Shown piece after piece: positions 135-12,669 of a stretch of 14,271 nucleotides of DNA. Positions within the stretch are counted from its first letter, which is position 1. Every line of letters begins with the position of its first letter. Source of the DNA: a virus; the UHGV virus genome UHGV-0141067, one strand, 5' to 3'. The notes beneath the pieces were generated by a model. It saw only the letters and a program-made list of their open reading frames with translations. It was not told the origin of the DNA and did no database searches. Made by a program: the position numbers and the translations under genes.

Positions 135-1205
135 TTATTTGATTTCAATTTTGTCCCACTCCCTGCCTCTGTCATCACGATACTGTGATGCCATGGTGTC
201 CGACTTATGCCCGAGAAGATGTTGAGCAAACTTATCGCTTATCTGCTTCTCATAGAGTCTTGCAGACAAACTGCGCAACTCGTGAAAGGTAGGCGGATCC
301 CCTTCGAAGGAAAGACCTGATGCTTTTCGTGCGCGCATAAAATACCTTGATACTGTGCCGGATGAAAGCGGTTCACGACGAGTAGATGCAATTATGGTTT
401 CTCCGCCAAGAATCTCTTTGCATTTATCAAGTGTTTCCTTCATTGATATTCCGAGAGCATCAACATGCAATGCTGTTGGGATGGCAATTTTTACGCCTGT
501 TTTGCTTTGCTCGACATAAAGATATCCATCTACGATATCAGACCACTTCATTTCGCATAAATCACCAACTCGTTGCCCGGTAACAACAGCCAGTTCCATT
601 GCAAGTCTGAGCCAACATGGTGATGATTCTGCTGCTTGATAAATTTTCAGGTATTCGTCAGCCGTAAGTCTTGATCTCCTTACCTCTGATTTTGCTGCGC
701 GAGTGGCAGCGACAGGGTTTGTTGTTATATGGCCTTCAGCTATTGCCTCTCGGAATGCATCGCTCAGTGTTGATCTGATTAACTTGGCTGATGCCGCCTT
801 GCCCTCGTCTATGTATCCATTGAGCATTGCCGCAATTTCTTTTGTGGTGATGTCTTCAAGTGGAGCATCAGGCAGCCCCCTCCTTATTGCTTTAATTTTG
901 CTCATGTAATTTATGAGTGTCTTCTGCTTGATTCCTCTGCTGGCGAGGATTTTTTCGTAGCGATCAAGCCATGAATGTAACGTAACGGAATTATCACTGT
1001 TGATTCTCGCTGTCAGAGGCTTGTGTTTGTGTCCTGAAAATAACTCAATGTTGGCCTGTATAGCTTCAGTGATTGCGATTCGCCTGTCTCGGCCTAATCC
1101 AAACTCTTTACCCGTCCTTGGGTCCCTGTAGCAGTAATATCCATTGTTTCTTATATAAAGGTTAGGGGGTAAATCCCGGCGCTCATGACTTCGCCTTCTT
1201 CCCAT
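135..1205 (-). CDS. int: Site-specific tyrosine integrase (lambda Int)
   Basis: 356-aa ORF beginning MGRRRSHERRDLPPNLYIRNNGYYCYRDPRTGKEF, recognised as lambda Int; ATG start; lies next to the P' arm; overlaps xis as in lambda. Confidence 0.97.
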   Translation of the reverse strand: MGRRRSHERRDLPPNLYIRNNGYYCYRDPRTGKEFGLGRDRRIAITEAIQANIELFSGHKHKPLTARINSDNSVTLHSWLDRYEKILASRGIKQKTLINYMSKIKAIRRGLPDAPLEDITTKEIAAMLNGYIDEGKAASAKLIRSTLSDAFREAIAEGHITTNPVAATRAAKSEVRRSRLTADEYLKIYQAAESSPCWLRLAMELAVVTGQRVGDLCEMKWSDIVDGYLYVEQSKTGVKIAIPTALHVDALGISMKETLDKCKEILGGETIIASTRREPLSSGTVSRYFMRARKASGLSFEGDPPTFHELRSLSARLYEKQISDKFAQHLLGHKSDTMASQYRDDRGREWDKIEIK

Positions 1206-5323: not shown

Positions 5324-5797
5324 CTAGAACGGAATATCCGAATCGTCGAAGTTCATAGGTGGTTCGCTGTGATCCCCCTGCTGCTGAGGTTGCTGTCTTT
5401 GTTGCTGACCGCTATTTCGCTGAGGAGAAGACTGTTCATTGCCTCCTTGCTTGCCACCAAGCATTTGCATGGTTCCACCAACGCCCACGATGACTTCGGT
5501 AGTGAACCGATCCTGTCCGCTTTGATCCTGCCATTTTCTTGTCCGCAATTTGCCTTCAAGATAAACCTCAGAGCCTTTTCGCAGATATTCGCTGGCAATT
5601 TCTGCCAGTTTCCCGCTCATTACCACGCGGTGCCACTCCGTCTGCTCCTTTTGCTCTCCAGTTTGCTTATCACGCCATTGTTCTGACGTAGCAACTGTAA
5701 GGTTTGCAAATGCCGTTCCTGATGGTGAATATCTGATTTCTGGATCATGCCCAAGGCGACCAATAATGATCACCTTATTTACGCCTCTGCTTGCCAT
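5324..5797 (-). CDS. ssb: Single-stranded DNA-binding protein
   Basis: 157-aa [19 protein letters not shown]...; OB-fold SSB pattern, Gly/Gln-rich linker and acidic tail ending DDSDIPF. Confidence 0.93.
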
Positions 5798-6505
5798 TTA
5801 TGCCGCCTGTTTTAGTTCGTTAACTCTGATGTTCATTACCTGAACGCATTTAGCCTGCGCCTCCTCGTTGCCAGCCATTAATTGCCAGTCACGCTGATAA
5901 CGCTCGATGAGTTTTTTCTTGTCAGTTTCTGTTGACGCATAATCGCTGAAGTCTTTCAGGATTTGTTCGCAGTCAACCGATGGAGATTTCTGGTTGATAT
6001 TTTCTGGTGATGGTTTGTTATCTGATGCTGGGATTGCCCATCCCGGAAGCGATGGAGGGAGCCAGTAAAATCCTGTTCCATCTTTCAGTTTTGCCCTGTG
6101 CCATCCCTGCTTTTTATCGAGAGATGTTTGTGCGAAACCTTCCTCAAGGTTATACAGATACCGACCGATTCCCCACTGAACGGCAGCGCGCTTCATTGCA
6201 CCGGAACGACCACCTTTGACGGCTTCTACCTGCGTGTTTTCAGCAGCATCCCATTTGGTTACCCATTCGGAATCAATCTTGATTGATATGCCGCATTCAA
6301 CTCCGCCGTTGTTGGGAATATCGCGGTATTCATTGCGCCATCCTGCTTTGCCGCAAACATCGTCCAGGCGTTTCATGATTGCCCGGTTCGTGACATAAGC
6401 CAGCACCATAGCCCACACCTTGCCATCGCGTGTTTTACCGCTTTGCTGTATTCGCCATTCGATATCTTCAGGGCTGAATGGCTCATCGAATTTATTCAAA
6501 TCCAT
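5798..6505 (-). CDS. Rad52-family single-strand annealing protein (recombinase)
   Basis: 235-aa ORF with ATG start and GAGGTG Shine-Dalgarno; stop overlaps the ssb start (TAAATG); central region (...GGRSGAMKRAAVQWGIGRYLY...) looks like the Rad52/Sak annealing fold; occupies the bet position. Confidence 0.8.
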   Translation of the reverse strand: MDLNKFDEPFSPEDIEWRIQQSGKTRDGKVWAMVLAYVTNRAIMKRLDDVCGKAGWRNEYRDIPNNGGVECGISIKIDSEWVTKWDAAENTQVEAVKGGRSGAMKRAAVQWGIGRYLYNLEEGFAQTSLDKKQGWHRAKLKDGTGFYWLPPSLPGWAIPASDNKPSPENINQKSPSVDCEQILKDFSDYASTETDKKKLIERYQRDWQLMAGNEEAQAKCVQVMNIRVNELKQAA

Positions 6506-6702: not shown

Positions 6703-6812
6703 TTAGACCTCCATTTTCTGTAGGCTTCGACGGCCTCACGAAACATCTTTTCATCGCCAATAAAAGTGGCGATAGTGAATTTAGTCTGAATAGCCATAAG
6801 TGTTTTATCCAT
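6699..6812 (-). CDS. kil: Kil-like host cell-division inhibitor
   Basis: Contains MDKTLMAIQTKFTIATFIGDEKMFREAVEAYRKW, matching my recollection of lambda Kil; start placed at the internal ATG (6812) because the longer 67-aa track ORF would run through the cIII 3' end. Confidence 0.65.
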   Translation of the reverse strand: MDKTLMAIQTKFTIATFIGDEKMFREAVEAYRKWRSK

Positions 6813-6951
6813 TTTTTGGAACTCTTGGCTGATTAAGTACGTCGATGAGTCGTTTCCATCCGTCACGTAATTTACGGGTGATTCGTTCAAGTAAAGATTC
6901 ATTTAGTTGGAAGGCACCCATGCGAGCGCCTCCCGCGATTGCGTAAATCAT
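6805..6951 (-). CDS. cIII: CIII-like protease inhibitor (48 aa; absent from the ORF track because it is under 60 aa)
   Basis: Hand translation gives MIYAIAGGARMGAFQLNESLLERITRKLRDGWKRLIDVLNQPRVPKNG; the ESLLERITRKLRDGWKRLID core matches lambda CIII as I recall it. Confidence 0.8.
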   Translation of the reverse strand: MIYAIAGGARMGAFQLNESLLERITRKLRDGWKRLIDVLNQPRVPKNG

Positions 6952-6975: not shown

Positions 6976-7944
6976 TTAGTAGGTTATTTTTGTTGCGAAT
7001 ACTTCGCCTTTTACGATGGCTGTTATGATATTTTTAGCAACATCTTCTGATGCGCCAACCTTGATAAGGTCAGCAAGTATTTTGTTATTTACTTCTTTCC
7101 GGTGAGCTTTATCCTTTGCTCTACGCTCTTCTTCTTCCTTGATTCTTTTTTCTTCTGCTATTCTGGCTTGCTCTTTTGCTTCAGCCTCGCGCCGGATTCG
7201 TTCAGCCTCCTCCTGTGCTTTTCGGCGTTCTGCTTCAATTGCCGCCTGCTTTTCTCTTTCAGCTCGTTCTGCTGCCTCTTTTGCTTCGCGCTGTGCTCGT
7301 TGCTCGGCTTCAATGCGTTCACGCTCTGCACGTTCCGCTGCGGCCTTAGCTTCTGCTTCTCGCCTTGCTGCTGATTCAATTTCGGCTTTTGCCTTTGCTT
7401 CGGCTTCTGCTCTGGCTTTCTCTTCAGCTTCTCTTTTTAAGCGTTCTTCATGCTCTCGCTTTTCCTGCTCCGCTTTGAGTCTTGCCTCTTCTCTTTGGCG
7501 GTCAAATTCGCGATCCATCAAAATAGCTATTTCATGATCAGACTCAATTTGCTTTGCGAGAGCTTCAGCTGCTGCCTTAGCTTCTTCTTCGGCTTTAATC
7601 CGCGCCTGTTCCTCCTCATAATCAGTAAGAGGCTGGCGAGCCTTGGCTTTCAGTTCATCAAGGCGATCGCGCACTGTCTTGCGGTTGGCATCAATTAGCT
7701 TTGGAATTTCCTTCAGTTCAGCAACAAGGTCTTTGCCAAGACCATCGAGATATGTTTTCGTCTGCGCAACTTTATACGCCAGAGAAGCGATCTCCTTTCT
7801 GCCCTTTGCCGTTGTGATATCAGGCACAAAGGACATAACTTCACGTTCAACCTTTTGAAGGATTTCTTCAATCTGGTCTGCAGACTGAAATACAGTCATT
7901 GCATTTGCTTTTTCAATAAAAACTAAGTCTGTTACTTCACTCAT
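6976..7944 (-). CDS. Phage protein with a long Glu/Ala/Arg/Lys-rich helical (coiled-coil-like) central region
   Basis: Track ORF 6976..7998; start moved to the ATG at 7944 (MSEVTDLVF...), which follows a GGAGG Shine-Dalgarno. About 150 aa of low-complexity EAKA/ERAE repeats. Confidence 0.75.
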   Translation of the reverse strand: MSEVTDLVFIEKANAMTVFQSADQIEEILQKVEREVMSFVPDITTAKGRKEIASLAYKVAQTKTYLDGLGKDLVAELKEIPKLIDANRKTVRDRLDELKAKARQPLTDYEEEQARIKAEEEAKAAAEALAKQIESDHEIAILMDREFDRQREEARLKAEQEKREHEERLKREAEEKARAEAEAKAKAEIESAARREAEAKAAAERAERERIEAEQRAQREAKEAAERAEREKQAAIEAERRKAQEEAERIRREAEAKEQARIAEEKRIKEEEERRAKDKAHRKEVNNKILADLIKVGASEDVAKNIITAIVKGEVFATKITY

Positions 7945-7956
7945 ATATCCTCCATC

Positions 7957-7983
7957 AAAAAAATCGCCCTCACATCGGAGGGC
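7957..7983 (-). terminator. Putative intrinsic terminator (minus strand) between the 70-aa gene and the coiled-coil gene
   Basis: Stem gccctc/gagggc (7966-7983) with a 6-nt loop, followed on the minus strand by a T7 tract (plus-strand A-run 7957-7963). Confidence 0.5.
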
Positions 7984-8078
7984 AAAGAAGATTTCCAATA
8001 ATCAGAACAAGTCGGCTCCTGTTTAGTTACGAGCGACATTGCTCCGTGTATTCACTCGTTGGAATGAATACACAGTGC

Positions 8079-8291
8079 TTATTCGCGAGCTTTGAGCATG
8101 GCATCAGCAATAAAGTAGGCATCATCTGCTAATTCTTTGTACTGTGGTGAATTCTGTCCACCGCCAAAGGAATGTCCGTCCCATCTGCGCACTATTGCTG
8201 CCATAGCCTTAGCAGCGAAGTAATCACGTAATGTCGCATCACTTGCCATTTCTGGGCGTTTGATATCTGCTTCATAAAACTCGCACATCAT
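8079..8291 (-). CDS. Hypothetical phage protein (70 aa)
   Basis: ATG start with GGGAGGTGA Shine-Dalgarno; start overlaps the upstream stop. Confidence 0.6.
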   Translation of the reverse strand: MMCEFYEADIKRPEMASDATLRDYFAAKAMAAIVRRWDGHSFGGGQNSPQYKELADDAYFIADAMLKARE

Positions 8292-8567
8292 TCACCTCCC
8301 AGAGCCTTGCTGATTGCTGCCTTGGCTCGTTTGTATTCGGTTAACTCTCTGCACCCTTCGTCATGCTCGTAAAGGAAGACAAGCTCTTGCAGTGCTTCAA
8401 GCAAATCAGGAGCTGCTGCTATCAGTAGCGCATCCTCCCTTTCATTTCTTGTTGCTGCTTCAATGTATGTGTCACCAATCGTCACACCATGGAACGTAGT
8501 CATCATCTCGTTGACGTTTCTAACCGTGTACTTCCATTTACCAGGCGTACCCTTAAACTCTTTCATA
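8288..8567 (-). CDS. Hypothetical phage protein
   Basis: Track ORF 8288..8572 starts at a GTG; the ATG at 8567 follows a GAGGTGG Shine-Dalgarno. Confidence 0.65.
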
Positions 8568-8574
8568 TCCACCT

Positions 8575-8614
8575 CTGTTGTTTATGCCAAAAATAAAGGC
8601 CGACTATGCGGCCT
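8575..8614. repeat. Copy 1 of a ~40-bp direct repeat containing a hairpin (terminator-like on the minus strand)
   Basis: ctgttgtttatgccaaaaataaaggccgactatgcggcct; stem aggccg/cggcct with loop actatg; a U-tract follows on the minus-strand transcript. Near-identical copy at 9118-9155. Confidence 0.8.
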
Positions 8615-9083
8615 AGTAGAATACCCAATTTTCTGTTTCTTGGTTGTGTCCAAAGTTATATTCAATATCTGGTGTTGATGTATCAATATTCTTCATCCCA
8701 TCAACAAGAGTTGATACAACAGCCAAATCTTGTTTGATTCTCATCAAATGGTATTTCTTCCGGCGCAATAAACTTTCAATGGCAAGTTTCTTCGTCGGGA
8801 ACGCAAAAGATCTTTCTGCATTTTTTGCTACTTTCTTAATTGCATATCTATTTCTCCTTTGTTTCCATTCCTGTAACCACTGATTTGGTGCTGGTTTAAA
8901 ATTAACAATCCAATGCGCAGGAACCAACCATGCATAATGCTCTGTCTGATGAAAAGCTATATATTGAAGTGCGAATATTTTGATTCCATCTTCTTCAACT
9001 GTCGCTTGGAATCTCCAGAAAACAGGCATTCCATCATGTTCAGTTTCTGATTCAGGAAAAGGTACGCTCCATGATTTTGTCAT
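8613..9083 (-). CDS. Hypothetical protein (156 aa) in the AT-rich insert
   Basis: ATG start preceded by ttatttgaGGTGAgat, the same RBS context as the next gene; visibly AT-rich; stop overlaps the hairpin repeat. Confidence 0.7.
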   Translation of the reverse strand: MTKSWSVPFPESETEHDGMPVFWRFQATVEEDGIKIFALQYIAFHQTEHYAWLVPAHWIVNFKPAPNQWLQEWKQRRNRYAIKKVAKNAERSFAFPTKKLAIESLLRRKKYHLMRIKQDLAVVSTLVDGMKNIDTSTPDIEYNFGHNQETENWVFY

Positions 9084-9117
9084 ATCTCACCTCAAATAAT
9101 TCAGTGCAGTGTTTATT

Positions 9118-9155
9118 CTGTTGTTTATGCCAAAAGAAGGCCGACTATGCGGCCT
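9118..9155. repeat. Copy 2 of the ~40-bp hairpin-containing direct repeat
   Basis: ctgttgtttatgccaaaagaaggccgactatgcggcct; same hairpin, lying just downstream (on the minus strand) of the 149-aa gene. Confidence 0.8.
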
Positions 9156-9159
9156 GAAA

Positions 9160-9609
9160 TTACTTAACCAATGATGCTGCATATTCGATAAGGTAAAGAT
9201 TTGGGGTCAGCCAAATTTTTAACCAAGTCATATTGGTTACTACACCAATAATAAAAATCCCCCACAGAGTCAAAACTACAACCAATGGCATGATAAGAAG
9301 ATTAATATCACCTTTGCTATCCCAAACCATTGTCGGCCTGTATTTGGGATTTCCTTTCTCCCATGAATATCCTTCATCACCGATTTTACCTGTCTCAACT
9401 CTTTGGCACTGCTTCTTCATAAACCAGAAAACCAGTGGGATTGTTAGAATGGCCATTAATGTTTTAATCAGACTGTCAACCATATTCCATAGCAGCAACT
9501 GATGAACAACATCAGGAATCTGTGCCTGGCTAAATGAAACAGCCGCGTCTATTCCATTACTGGCTTTTTGCAGTAGTTCTACGAGAATCTTGTTTGCTTG
9601 TTCTTCCAT
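9160..9609 (-). CDS. Putative inner-membrane protein with two predicted TM helices (possible superinfection-exclusion function)
   Basis: 149-aa ORF with ATG start and the duplicated ttatttgaGGTGAga RBS context; hydrophobic segments LIKTLMAILTIPLVFWFM and INLLIMPLVVVLTLWGIFIIGVV; AT-rich; sits next to N where lambdoid phages often carry sieB-type genes. Function is inferred from position only. Confidence 0.65.
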   Translation of the reverse strand: MEEQANKILVELLQKASNGIDAAVSFSQAQIPDVVHQLLLWNMVDSLIKTLMAILTIPLVFWFMKKQCQRVETGKIGDEGYSWEKGNPKYRPTMVWDSKGDINLLIMPLVVVLTLWGIFIIGVVTNMTWLKIWLTPNLYLIEYAASLVK

Positions 9610-9663
9610 ATCTCACCTCAAATAAGTGGTTTGCTGCGAAAGTAAATACGCTTAAGTTACCTG

Positions 9664-9801
9664 TTATTTATCCCACCAAGTTCCGTATCTATCTATCCAG
9701 TTACACCAATCATCGACACTCCATTTTGTTGTGTCGCATTTTGGCAACTGGCATGAATATCTACCTTCTTTGTAAAGTCGGCGTTTGACTTTCTTGAGCA
9801 T
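9664..9801 (-). CDS. Small Cys-containing hypothetical protein (45 aa; hand-translated)
   Basis: ATG at 9801 preceded by GAGGTGA; translation MLKKVKRRLYKEGRYSCQLPKCDTTKWSVDDWCNWIDRYGTWWDK; immediately downstream of N. Confidence 0.4.
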   Translation of the reverse strand: MLKKVKRRLYKEGRYSCQLPKCDTTKWSVDDWCNWIDRYGTWWDK

Positions 9802-9809
9802 GGCTCACC

Positions 9810-10142
9810 TCAATCGTAATAAGCTGGAATTGATTTTCCGCGTTGCTTCTGGCGGCCTGAGCAGGTCAACCCCATTTCACTGCGTGGCTTGCTGTACCAT
9901 GTGCGCTGATTCTTGCGCTCAATACGCTGCAGGTTGCTTTCAATCTGTTCGTGGTATTCAGCCAGCACCGTAAGGTCTATCGGATTCAGTGCGCTTTCTA
10001 CTCGTGATTTCGGTTTGCGATTCAGCGAGAGAATAGGGCGGTTAACTGGTTTTGCGCTTACCCCAACCAACAGGGGATTTGCTGCTTTCCATTGAACCTG
10101 TTTCTCTGCGCGACGTTCGCGGCGGCGTGTTTGTGCATCCAT
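9810..10142 (-). CDS. N: Antitermination protein N (lambda-like)
   Basis: 110-aa ORF MDAQTRRRERRAEKQVQWKAANPLLVGVSAKPVNRPILSLNRKPKSRVESALNPIDLTVLAEYH..., matching lambda N including the Arg-rich boxB-binding motif. Confidence 0.96.
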   Translation of the reverse strand: MDAQTRRRERRAEKQVQWKAANPLLVGVSAKPVNRPILSLNRKPKSRVESALNPIDLTVLAEYHEQIESNLQRIERKNQRTWYSKPRSEMGLTCSGRQKQRGKSIPAYYD

Positions 10143-10410
10143 CTGGATTCTCCTGTCAGTTAGCTTTGGTGGTGTGGTGGCTGGTAGTCTAGCTCCAGCT
10201 TGTTGAGTCTCATTCGGAGGGGTATAACCGGCACCCCAGCGATTTTTCCATGCGACAACGTGCGCGTTATGGCGGCCTTATCGCCCGCGGCTCCCCATCT
10301 CGTCCACGCTATTGCTAGCGTTGGGAGCGCTTCACCGCTCAACAGTAGGTAAGCACTTGCCAGTGACTAGCTGGCTTCACCACACCCCAAAGCCTTCTGC
10401 TTTGAATGCT

Positions 10411-10441
10411 GCCCTTCTTCAGGGCTAAATTTTTAAGAGCC
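10411..10441 (-). promoter_or_regulatory. nutL (boxA + boxB)
   Basis: Minus strand reads GGCTCTTAAAAATTTA GCCCTGAAGAAGGGC; the boxB hairpin is identical to lambda nutL boxB as I recall it, and boxA-like CTCTTAA is adjacent. Confidence 0.85.
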
Positions 10442-10480
10442 TCACCTTCATGGTGGTCAGTGCGTCCTGTTGATGGCTAG

Positions 10481-10509
10481 ATAATCACAAATTGTGTTCG
10501 TGCTGTCAA
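10481..10509 (-). promoter_or_regulatory. pL promoter (-35 TTGACA, 17-bp spacer, -10 GATTAT)
   Basis: On the minus strand TTGACA is the complement of 10504-10509 and GATTAT the complement of 10481-10486; positioned upstream of nutL and N. Confidence 0.65.
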
Positions 10510-10543
10510 CACGAAATGTGATTGTTTTTATCACAACACGTGT
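10486..10543. promoter_or_regulatory. oL operator: three CAC-N5-GTG palindromic sites
   Basis: cacaaattgtg (10486-10496), cacgaaatgtg (10510-10520), cacaacacgtg (10533-10543); centres spaced 24 and 23 bp; overlap the pL -10 and -35. Confidence 0.6.
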
Positions 10544-10573
10544 TTTCATTGATTTTTAAGGTAATTTAATTTT

Positions 10574-10605
10574 CTTTGGGCAACAAAAAACCCGCCGAAG
10601 CGGGT
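10574..10605. terminator. Intrinsic terminator downstream of cI (bidirectional appearance)
   Basis: Stem cccgc/gcggg with loop cgaa (10580-10593), flanked by A6 upstream and T-rich tttgatgttttt downstream; closes the cI transcript before the pL region. Confidence 0.7.
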
Positions 10606-10630
10606 TTGATGTTTTTAAGTGGCGGGTATA

Positions 10631-11272
10631 TCAGGAGAATTTCATCATCATCTGCACTGCTACGCCGATTATCTTGCAGTTGCCGTCGATTGGGATCAAC
10701 GGATAGGCAGGGTTAAGCCCTTTCAGGTATTTGTTACCGCCATCAATGATTAGCTTCTTGAACGTGGCTTCATTAGCATCTGTCAGCTTCGCAACTACCA
10801 GGCTTCCATTAACGGCTTCCTTTCCAGTGTCGAACAGAACCAGCATACCCTCAGGAACGCTAAGGCCGGTAGGAGCTGTCATTGAGTCGCCCTGAACCCT
10901 GAGCCAGAAGGCGTCACCGACAACGTGACAATCTGATTCATACCACTCATCCACTGCCTGAGGGTTGTACGGCTCTACGGCCTCACTCCATGCACCTGCG
11001 CTAACCCAGCTAATCAACGGAAACTTTTCCCCTGGCTTGTATTGTCCCTGATAGTTGTCGCCAAAAAGCAGTTCTGCCGGAGCGACGCCCAAAGCTTTAG
11101 CTATTACCTCTGCGTCATCAACACTAACGCTTCTGGTTCCTGATTCATAGTTGCCGATCCGAGATTGTGAAGCCCAGCCGCAAAGCTCCGCCAGAGCCTT
11201 CTGTGAAAGCCCTTTATCTTCCCGTAATCGCTTGATACGCGCGGCGATAGTTTCTGTTCTGTTCATGCGCAT
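10631..11272 (-). CDS. cI: CI-type prophage repressor (HTH N-terminal domain plus LexA/S24-like autocleaving C-terminal domain)
   Basis: 213-aa ORF; C-terminal half (KFPLISWVSAGAW...GDSM...VVAKLTDANEATFKKLIIDGGNKYLKGLNPAYPLIPIDGNCKIIGV) closely resembles the phage 434 repressor C-terminal domain as I recall it; N-terminus is a distinct HTH. Start could be the ATG at 11272 or 11266. Confidence 0.9.
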   Translation of the reverse strand: MRMNRTETIAARIKRLREDKGLSQKALAELCGWASQSRIGNYESGTRSVSVDDAEVIAKALGVAPAELLFGDNYQGQYKPGEKFPLISWVSAGAWSEAVEPYNPQAVDEWYESDCHVVGDAFWLRVQGDSMTAPTGLSVPEGMLVLFDTGKEAVNGSLVVAKLTDANEATFKKLIIDGGNKYLKGLNPAYPLIPIDGNCKIIGVAVQMMMKFS

Positions 11273-11278
11273 TTTATA

Positions 11279-11336
11279 TCACATTCCGTGGTTTAAGGCT
11301 TTACACGATTTGTGTTGACTATCAATCACAATATGT
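11279..11336. promoter_or_regulatory. oR operator: three CAC-N5-GTG sites (pRM/pR control region)
   Basis: cacattccgtg (11279-11289), cacgatttgtg (11303-11313), cacaatatgtg (11326-11336); same motif and spacing as oL. Confidence 0.6.
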
Positions 11337-11343
11337 GTTTAAT
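11314..11343 (+). promoter_or_regulatory. pR promoter (-35 TTGACT; -10 around TTTAAAT)
   Basis: TTGACT at 11314-11319 with a T/A-rich -10 candidate 17-19 bp downstream; overlaps operator sites; about 30 nt upstream of cro. Confidence 0.55.
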
Positions 11344-11376
11344 AAAGACTGAGTGAACTAGCTCTTAAGGAAACCT

Positions 11377-11592
11377 ATGAACAACATTGCCAACGAACGG
11401 AAAAAGCTTGGCATCACTCAATCTGCGTTAGCAGGCGCGTGTGGCTGGAACCAGTCCCGCTTAGCTAACTACGAGTCAGGTATCCGGACTCCAGATTTAG
11501 AGTCGTGCCGTCGCCTGGTAAAGGCGCTGAATAAATTGGGGAGCAAGACAACGCTAGATGGCTTGTTCCCGCCGGAACACAAAGCCGCTTAA
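11377..11592 (+). CDS. cro: Cro-like HTH repressor (XRE family)
   Basis: 71-aa ORF with ATG start and AAGGA Shine-Dalgarno; HTH pattern LGITQSALAGACGWNQSRLANYESG; first gene rightward from pR, divergent from cI. Confidence 0.85.
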   Translation: MNNIANERKKLGITQSALAGACGWNQSRLANYESGIRTPDLESCRRLVKALNKLGSKTTLDGLFPPEHKAA

Positions 11593-12024: not shown

Positions 12025-12669
12025 ATGACATACGAAAATGACAAATTCCAGGTTCTGAAGAGCATGAAGGTGCCAGATGATTTTAAATCAAATGGCTTTG
12101 TTTATGTGCTTTCTAATGAGTGCATGCCAGGAATTTATAAGATTGGGATGACTAAGCATTCACCAGAAGTTAGGGCTAAAGAAATTTCAGCCTCTACTGG
12201 CGTTCCTAAGCCATTTAAGGTGATAGCAGCCTTTCATTCAAATAATCCCGCATCAGATGAAAAACTCATTCATAAAGCCTTTGCAAAAGAGAGGCTTAGT
12301 GATAATCGAGAGTTTTTCAAGCTTGAAGATAATGAGCTTTCTGAATCTCTAAATGAAATAAGGGCGCTGGTTGGCCCTGAAAGAAATGGCGAGACGGCAG
12401 AATACGCAATTTACGACTCATTCATTTCTTTTCGCCATGAAAATGAGCTTGATCTTAATGAGGAGCTTATAGAGCAAGGTCTGGGTAGTGTAGTTGGTCA
12501 TCTTCCTGCGGTGAAAAATTTCCTTATTCGCGCCGGAATTGATTACGCGAAGCAACTGATAAGCAAATATAACTCATCGATAGTTATTAATACAGATGGC
12601 AGTGTGGTGATGGTTAAGTCTCTTGAAGCCCAATGCTTTGATGCGGAGGTTGGAAATGAGCCTGGCTGA
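12025..12669 (+). CDS. T5orf172 (GIY-YIG-like) domain protein; AT-rich insert between cII and O
   Basis: 214-aa ORF with ATG start after a CAGGAG Shine-Dalgarno; N-terminal GFVYVLSNECMPGIYKIGMTKHSPEVRAKEISASTGVPKPFKV...NREFF fits the T5orf172 domain pattern as I recall it; C-terminal ~100 aa unassigned. Confidence 0.8.
   Translation: MTYENDKFQVLKSMKVPDDFKSNGFVYVLSNECMPGIYKIGMTKHSPEVRAKEISASTGVPKPFKVIAAFHSNNPASDEKLIHKAFAKERLSDNREFFKLEDNELSESLNEIRALVGPERNGETAEYAIYDSFISFRHENELDLNEELIEQGLGSVVGHLPAVKNFLIRAGIDYAKQLISKYNSSIVINTDGSVVMVKSLEAQCFDAEVGNEPG

Follow-up and report, generated by a model that had tools for sequence, protein, structure and literature searches.

Two orphan genes between N and cIII of a lambda-like phage as probable independent early cassettes bounded by shared linkers

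Two AT-rich genes beside the antiterminator gene N of the virus genome UHGV-0141067, here called A and B, were analysed within a stretch of 14,271 nucleotides (nt), which is referred to as the window. It covers the early-left arm of a temperate lambda-like phage together with the immunity region. A and B, which encode proteins of 156 and 149 amino acids (aa), are best explained as independent early accessory cassettes that sit in the hypervariable N-cIII slot of a lambda-like pL operon and are shuffled at conserved linkers. We give this reading a probability of about 0.7. The first-pass annotation had proposed a two-gene insert forming a paired Rex-like exclusion or abortive-infection module. 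Both genes are real, and the coordinates and lengths given for A (8613-9083) and B (9160-9609) were reproduced. However, the interval between N and cIII carries six genes, which encode, in the order from N, a 45-aa protein, B, A and proteins of 94, 70 and 340 aa. A and B are oriented leftward, as is N. The GC content is 36.7% for A (30% at third codon positions) and 38.9% for B, against 51.4% for N, 47.0% for the downstream 94-aa gene and 46.2% for the window. The contrast with the flanks that had been noticed earlier is confirmed by windowed GC calculation, in which the stretch of A and B is the most AT-rich of the window. The lowest value, 36.3%, was obtained with the 300-nt windows at 8551-9000.

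Each of the two genes is framed by the same sequences. A 19-nt block, CATATCTCACCTCAAATAA, is present at 9081-9099 and 9607-9625. The two copies are 100% identical and 526 nt apart. On the coding strand the block reads TTATTTGAGGTGAGATATG and contains the ribosome-binding site (RBS), and each copy terminates in a start codon; it is called RBS-19 below. A third, weaker RBS copy (87%) was found at 9799-9813 ahead of the 45-aa gene. The recurrence of an exact 19-mer inside 1.5 kb far exceeds chance. On the 3' side of both B and A there is a hairpin, AGGCCGCATAGTCGGCCT, with a T-rich tail and then TTTTGGCATAAACAACAGA. The 19-nt block at 8574-8592 is repeated with 100% identity at 9117-9135, and the hairpin blocks, 24 nt each, share 92% identity between 8591-8614 and 9132-9155. 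Both hairpins are terminator-like, with a 6-bp stem containing five GC pairs, a 6-nt loop and a T-rich tail, and the hairpin at 8614-8597 shares 2 nt with the stop codon of A. The shared RBS context and the near-identical hairpin repeats of the first-pass annotation are thus borne out at base resolution.

The duplication can be traced to one insertion. The window is homologous to a prophage of NCTC11121 at 8574-9099 and at 9607-10176, and the flanking homology blocks in this prophage and in a second locus (L001) overlap by exactly the 19-nt RBS block. When 9081-9606 was removed in silico, 260 of 260 nt aligned to the NCTC11121 junction with 99.6% identity and no gaps, and the order N-45aa-A was restored. 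The overlap of the blocks and the clean deletion joint indicate that B, its terminator and the linker are one inserted unit of 526 nt, and that RBS-19 is duplicated because the insertion of this unit left a footprint. Comparison with prophages lacking the insert, which had been suggested as a check, therefore gave a recreated junction. The same slot has a second indel unit. The genes of 94 and 70 aa (8079-8573) are present in the phage Bas106 and missing from the NCTC11121, STEC383 and HF4s loci, and the right breakpoint of this unit lies immediately past the linker block.

The linkers are found around many other genes. Two scans of a viral contig collection were made, and the following counts hold among the matches listed. 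The exact RBS-19 opens open reading frames (ORFs) of at least 16 clusters, which make up at least 14 families with no relation to each other. The ORFs closed by the hairpin likewise form at least 16 clusters, with at least 12 unrelated families among them. The cargo behind RBS-19 is A (62 times), an acidic mini-ORF (39 times), an 83-aa gene, a 107-aa gene, B (three times) and singletons. The mini-ORF, MEEEFEEFEEHPQDVMEQYQDYPYDCDY, has 19-28 aa, is very acidic and is second to A, with 39 of the 126 exact RBS-19 cases listed (e.g. L123 and L204). Depending on the phage, the hairpin and linker trail A, B, a 49%-identical B allele, an Nmad5-family gene or a 63-aa gene, and they are shared by Bas106, HF4s, STEC383, STEC384 (Nmad5 gene; 63-aa gene), NCTC11121 and CUS-3. 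In the STEC384 prophage (L005 2535-3158), a gene annotated as 'Nmad5 family putative nucleotide modification protein' occupies the slot, followed by the same hairpin, the linker and then A. Furthermore, the 31 nt in front of B in the window are those that HK97 and 933W carry in front of A, and NCTC11121 and Bas106 have a near-identical sequence there. As judged from these comparisons, the RBS block and the hairpin-linker are generic inter-cassette junctions which are not private to A and B. The first-pass view of two cassettes built from the same flanking module was right, and it is sharpened by the generic junctions and by the exact insertion of 526 nt.

Such junctions represent the boundary-sequence form of the lambdoid mosaic. 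Short conserved intergenic blocks surround unrelated genes, and the breakpoints fall exactly on the blocks; the shared flank of unrelated genes and the position of the breakpoints were both found here. A model of modular evolution by targeted recombination at conserved boundary sequences has been summarised (PMC3233612), and Rad52-like phage recombinases are reported to promote exchange at short or diverged homology (PMC3945230). The record of CUS-3 itself annotates 'bsq' boundary sequences. The present locus differs in two respects. First, the blocks double as signals, namely a strong RBS with a start codon and a putative tL1-type terminator. Second, there is a chain of at least three repeated units in one slot.

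A and B appear to be unrelated accessory genes that were independently acquired, not a conserved pair. Among 5,426 complete E. coli genomes, A was found at 834 places in 598 genomes (about 11%) and B at 257 places in 244, and the two genes are adjacent in three genomes. A protein-level census of 211 viral contig stretches, which had been selected for carrying junction motifs, counted A only in 62, B only in 38 and both in five, against about 14 with both expected under independence. Each gene stands alone after N in functional phages: the order is N-gp45-terminator-cIII in HK97, N-L0079-ssb-cIII in 933W, N-B in HF4s and N-ral-B-like in CUS-3. In the sampled contexts of distant A and B homologs, which include other slots and lytic phages, the partner gene was never present alongside. 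The Rex-like pair model is largely refuted by these comparative data. As a separate observation, one metagenomic viral contig (L032, IMGVR_UViG_3300009148_000117, 382-2489) carries an A-like (64%) and a B-like (54%) gene about 1.2 kb apart on the same strand; it is the sole co-occurrence seen outside near-identical E. coli alleles.

Similarity to the exclusion genes of lambda was also searched. The statement that this phage has no rexAB holds, as tblastn of lambda RexA and RexB against the window gave nothing below E 0.3. By hhalign, the probability was 0.1% for the B family against RexB, 0.5% for the A family against RexA and 0.1% for B against lambda SieB, and none of the comparisons with the three proteins exceeded 0.5%. 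RexAB excludes superinfecting phages, for example T4 rII, by depolarising the membrane. Of its defining features, the three that the comparison covered, which are homology, inheritance as a pair and co-transcription with the repressor, are absent from the locus. A and B are like RexAB in that a membrane protein adjoins a soluble protein close to the immunity region. However, no sequence or profile similarity exists, A and B lie outside the cI transcript and are not a conserved pair, and B has two hydrophobic segments whereas RexB has four. In the case of SieB of lambda and P22, the likeness is that of a membrane protein in the neighbourhood immediately downstream of N. The lambda sieB gene, however, is on the strand opposite to N, while B is read in the direction of N, and slots in late operons are also taken by homologs of B. 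No Pfam hit to the SieB family (PF14163) was obtained for B or for 30 members of its family. A single weak tblastn hit of lambda SieB in gene A (E 0.014 in a tiny search space) was discarded, as the alignment is gapped, lies out of frame and runs across a stop codon.

The position of the two genes points to early lytic expression. A and B are co-directional with, and downstream of, an intact lambda-like pL-nutL-N, and intrinsic terminator-like sites lie between, which is the arrangement of an N-antiterminated pL early operon. The terminator of the cI transcript (10607-10588) precedes pL. From what is known of lambda, pL would transcribe A and B leftward, and both would be silent in a repressed lysogen and switched on at infection or induction. 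The terminator scan gave no terminator-like site from N to B, so B would be carried on the immediate-early transcript of N. For A, which follows the first hairpin, read-through by polymerase modified by N at nutL would be needed. No promoter was found upstream of A or B by sigma-70-type consensus scans, relaxed ones included, and the best matches (8/12) are inside coding sequence. The linkers upstream of A and B have only about 55-75 nt and are occupied by the hairpin and the RBS. Given the location in the pL operon and the lack of a recognisable promoter of their own, nothing points to expression in the lysogen. B relatives in virulent phages and in late operons, and distant A relatives in non-lambdoid phages, fit a service in the lytic cycle over the protection of a lysogen.

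The favoured explanation can be put together as follows. The 5' linker would supply a strong Shine-Dalgarno sequence, GAGGTGA, and the start codon, and the 3' linker would act as a tL1-type intrinsic terminator followed by a conserved spacer. Since these short blocks are common to many lambdoid phages around different cargo, they offer homology for recombination. The likely agents are the annealing proteins of the phages themselves, and the window encodes one of the Rad52 family. Recombination at the linkers would add, remove or swap whole cassettes. In the present phage, a B cassette of exactly 526 nt would have been placed between N-45aa and A with duplication of the 19-nt RBS block. A and B would then act separately during lytic growth, a part of the explanation that is of low confidence. 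The locus is an ordinary and neatly resolved lambdoid mosaic bearing two common orphan genes. Other occupants of the slot, such as lambda Ral, Ea10/Ssb and the Nmad5-family genes, are likewise small, early and interchangeable and have the same orientation. They differ in having no sequence relation to A or B, and Ral has an anti-restriction function.

Several points weigh against this explanation. First, the order B then A recurs in the three E. coli genomes and in 4-5 viral contigs. The shared linkers explain the recurrence, but it could reflect selection. Second, the promoter negative is weak in that it comes from a consensus scan, and a weak or non-sigma-70 promoter giving expression in the lysogen would escape it. 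Third, recombination at the linkers is deduced from the positions of the breakpoints. Fourth, the hairpins are modest putative terminators by fold: their RNA fold energies lie between -9.6 and -12.3 kcal/mol, and the z-scores, -1.5 and -2.2, are modest. In the hairpins of HF4s (L003 2556-2539) and NCTC11121 (L006 2056-2039), the same stem position is substituted and uncompensated, so the terminator stem is not strictly kept across phages. Finally, the two proteins match nothing characterised. Searches of Pfam, NCBIfam and PADLOC with A, B and their family alignments gave no match, PHROGs gave only hits to families without assigned function, and profile searches against PDB sequences gave nothing below E 0.3 for either protein. 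The AlphaFold2 models built from the family alignments are poor, with a predicted local distance difference test (pLDDT) score of 60 for A and 65 for B. When PDB and BFVD were searched with Foldseek, nothing reached E <= 0.001, and the best hits are uncharacterised phage proteins; with such poor models, the fold searches carry little weight. No publication on A or B was found by gene name, accession or PHROG number. The HMM and structure searches called for by the first-pass annotation therefore named the families (phrog_1636 for A and phrog_3054 for B), yet they provided neither a characterised homolog nor a fold match.

B is widespread, and its core is exchangeable. Full-length homologs with 26-49% identity occur in P22-like, N4-like Vibrio, phi92-like myovirus, Pseudomonas and Klebsiella phages. 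In agreement with the earlier description of a two-segment membrane protein beside a soluble one, hydrophobic segments are present twice in B, at about 43-64 and 104-126, and are absent from A. By count of Lys/Arg residues, the loop of B ranks highest with 7.5, the N-tail having 2.1 and the C-tail 3.0, but the C-tail is net positive too. Across the family, conservation is about 90% in the first 42 and the last 23 residues, whereas the core, consisting of the two transmembrane (TM) segments and the loop between them, is not conserved. Compared with the CUS-3 allele (L007 2501-2923), the first 115 nt and the last 60 nt or so of the gene, together with the linker, are 90-100% identical, whereas the central 270 nt or so (TM1-loop-TM2) are about 40% identical, which is the random level. 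Identical ends around a random-level centre indicate that the core is exchanged as a module. A constant scaffold of terminal helices with a swappable core that sets specificity would suit a protein acting on the envelope, be it in exclusion, lysis modulation or anti-abortive-infection. The most plausible role of B, proposed with low confidence, is that of a small inner-membrane protein which acts on the infected cell's envelope, either to exclude secondary infection or to modulate membrane or lysis events.

The genomic contexts of B homologs were sampled in nine lineages. In three of them, a B homolog ends the lysis cassette of holin, endolysin and spanin genes before the terminase: Pantoea (two prophages), Citrobacter freundii and Enterobacteriaceae strain BIT-l23. 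B overlaps the stop codon of the spanin gene by 4 nt in Pantoea and C. freundii, and two extra genes separate the spanin gene from B in BIT-l23. In a fourth lineage, B lies two genes downstream of Q. In the other five it is in the early-left operon after N, which is also its place in E. coli and Salmonella phages. The homologs of Kluyvera, Cronobacter, Citrobacter koseri and Siccibacter stand after N or near cIII/kil. The virulent N4-like Vibrio and phi92-like phages carry it among early or nucleotide-metabolism genes. It may be added that in prophages of Pantoea stewartii, C. freundii and others (L226 2768-3453, L231 2474-3450, L228 and L238) B stands at or just past the lysis cassette, with a terminase or HNH gene further beyond.

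A is a common protein of lambdoid phages. It is 99-100% identical to HK97 gp45, to 933W L0079 and to counterparts in dozens of Stx1- and Stx2-converting phages. By profile search, it belongs with a wider group of phage proteins of 130-155 aa (phrogs 13631, 25384 and 28215, none with assigned function), and a profile search of 1.84 billion representatives extended the family to 87 representatives, all unannotated. A is basic (isoelectric point 9.1), is predicted to be soluble and has no hydrophobic segment. In its AlphaFold2 model, at the low pLDDT given above, the N-terminal half is beta-rich and one helix is rich in Lys and Arg. A homologs lie immediately before xis-int in Pectobacterium and Brenneria, and a 75-kb Pantoea myovirus and a Vibrio phage have distant A-like genes within their arrays of early genes. 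A may be a cytoplasmic early factor that binds a host factor or nucleic acid, broadly of the kind represented by slot occupants such as Ral, which is a guess of low confidence. A reading of its RFAF-TK-A motif as an AP2-like DNA-binding element was dropped, as no support for it was found.

A more ambitious reading of the same data keeps the cassettes and gives them functions. B would represent a widespread and hitherto unrecognised class of phage inner-membrane proteins with a swappable core, spread over temperate and virulent phages of Enterobacterales, Vibrio and Pseudomonas, which is a tentative proposal of low probability. The specificity set by the core might then concern superinfection exclusion at DNA entry or the neutralisation of membrane-acting abortive-infection effectors, again a speculative assignment. 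Joined to this, A would be an independent early counter-defence or host-takeover factor and the linkers a dedicated shuffling scaffold; as a whole, the combination is possible but doubtful. T4 Imm and Sp are small early membrane exclusion proteins of a virulent phage. B is like them in being a small membrane protein that would be made early in a lytic cycle and whose family also occurs in virulent phages; no Pfam match was obtained.

Less probably, A and B would be two independent morons of the classical kind. Each would have an unrecognised promoter that is active in the lysogen and would protect the host alone, B for example as a superinfection-exclusion protein blocking DNA entry at the inner membrane. 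A and B share with the morons of HK97 and lambda-like phages the low GC, the precise presence or absence between relatives and a putative terminator immediately downstream, which covers two of the three moron features; A is moreover an HK97 gene, gp45. The third, a promoter of its own, was not detected in the consensus scan; A and B are read with the pL operon and appear to depend on it, and the short linkers are already taken up by hairpin and RBS. Small membrane exclusion proteins are known, among them T4 Imm, HK97 gp15 and P22 SieA, and B as a small two-segment membrane protein is like several of them; its central TM-loop-TM swapped between alleles with termini 90-100% identical fits a specificity determinant. 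However, both families extend beyond temperate lambdoids, and the virulent phages with B have no lysogen to protect. The embedding of B in the late operon of other genera, above all the 4-nt overlap with the spanin stop, indicates late lytic expression, and neither PADLOC nor the SieB and Imm families of Pfam gave a match. A single-gene exclusion role for B alone is possible.

It is rather unlikely that B is a lysis-associated membrane protein, either antiholin-like or concerned with lysis timing, which was also captured in the early operon while A is unrelated cargo. The three lineages in which B closes the lysis cassette, two of them with the spanin overlap, and the fourth with B downstream of Q speak for it. 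On the other side stand the five lineages and the E. coli and Salmonella phages with B in the early-left operon after N, and the virulent phages with B among early or nucleotide-metabolism genes. Pfam gave no holin or antiholin match. The region after Rz is moreover a known slot of accessory genes, for example lambda bor, and position alone is weak evidence. Very improbable, finally, is a Rex-like two-component system with A as a soluble sensor and B as a membrane effector protecting the lysogen: a membrane gene does adjoin a soluble gene near the immunity region of a phage without rexAB, the N-proximal region of lambda and P22 does host the exclusion gene sieB and the B-A pair does recur, but the pair is rarer than independence predicts, each gene is found alone in many phages, a single cassette insertion explains the adjacency, hhalign and PADLOC gave nothing, and the genes lie in the repressed pL operon and not in the cI/pRM transcript.

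With this result a false lead is removed: the locus does not carry a new defence system of the Rex-like, two-gene kind. The result also provides a base-resolved example of how the early accessory repertoire of lambdoid phages is assembled with reusable linkers that double as RBS and putative terminator. Two very common orphan families are flagged for screens of phage accessory genes. A is present in about one in nine complete E. coli genomes and in many of the collection's records of Stx-converting phages, 933W included. For a function in membrane-level exclusion, lysis or anti-defence, B, which reaches virulent phages, is the stronger candidate, and it is the more interesting lead of the two. 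The linker-bounded N-cIII slot is a simple handle for harvesting more cargo genes.

The features of the window are collected in Table 1. The closest phage record is Bas106, which is 99.8% identical across 8000-9099 and lacks gene B. N is 93% identical to lambda N. The elements at 10411-10440 are presumably the boxA and boxB of a lambda-type nutL. The pL-like promoter upstream of them (10509-10481) would drive the entire leftward operon. An Rfam scan of 7800-11500 gave no match.

Table 1. Features of the 14,271-nt window of UHGV-0141067, in order of position
Feature	Position	Strand	Remark
int	135-1205	-	lambda-like early-left arm
Ea22-like gene	between int and SSB in list order	-	
SSB	5324-5797	-	
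Rad52-family annealing protein	5798-6505	-	Pfam scan of window proteins
kil	between Rad52-family gene and cIII in list order	-	
cIII	6805-6951	-	
340-aa gene	6976-7998	-	
Third terminator-like hairpin	7964-7985	-	closes the 94-aa/70-aa unit
94-aa gene (phrog_1273) and 70-aa gene	8079-8573	-	indel unit
Second terminator-like hairpin (8614-8597) and 19-nt TTTTGGCATAAACAACAGA block	8574-8614	-	after A
Gene A, 156 aa	8613-9083	-	ORF call
RBS-19 copy 2	9081-9099	-	ends in A start codon
526-nt indel unit: one RBS-19, B ORF, hairpin, linker	9081-9606	-	in-silico deletion against the NCTC11121 prophage
Terminator-like hairpin (9155-9138) and conserved linker TTTTGGCATAAACAACAGAATAAACACTGCACTGAA	9100-9155	-	after B
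Gene B, 149 aa	9160-9609	-	ORF call
RBS-19 copy 1	9607-9625	-	ends in B start codon
45-aa Cys-rich DUF5484 gene	9664-9801	-	weaker third RBS-block copy in front
Antiterminator N	9810-10142	-	Pfam N36 1.2e-25; tblastn with lambda N, E 5e-70
nutL boxB GCCCTGAAGAAGGGC (presumed)	10425-10411	-	read from sequence; hairpin also flagged by terminator/hairpin scan
nutL boxA GCTCTTAAA (presumed)	10440-10432	-	read from sequence; lambda-like
pL-like promoter	10481-10509	-	TTGACA, 17-nt spacer, GATTAT, TG extension; 10/12 consensus matches
cI-like repressor gene	10631-11272		own terminator 10607-10588
cro, cII, T5orf172 gene, O-like gene	beyond cI	+	

Some observations were made on the neighbouring genes. 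The start of the 94-aa ORF is probably the ATG at 8566 and not the GTG at 8572. The 340-aa protein is a Glu/Ala/Lys/Arg-rich coiled coil, and its gene has an extreme AT skew of -0.76 at 7201-7500. Its homologs are named discordantly, as 'TolA' in NCTC11121 and as 'antitoxin, similar to phi80 Agt' in HF4s, and its PHROG matches are only to families without assigned function. In the leader of N, between nutL and N, there is a 60-aa ORF with a TTG start (10160-10342, minus strand). It has no Pfam match, and its equivalent in Bas106 is annotated as hypothetical; it may be a spurious call, the counterpart region of lambda being an untranslated leader. On the other side of the immunity region, a 214-aa gene (12025-12669, plus strand) with a T5orf172/MUG113 (GIY-YIG-like) domain (Pfam 1e-15) lies between cII and the O-like gene. 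It is an accessory gene of the pR operon and is also present in Bas106, where it is annotated as hypothetical.

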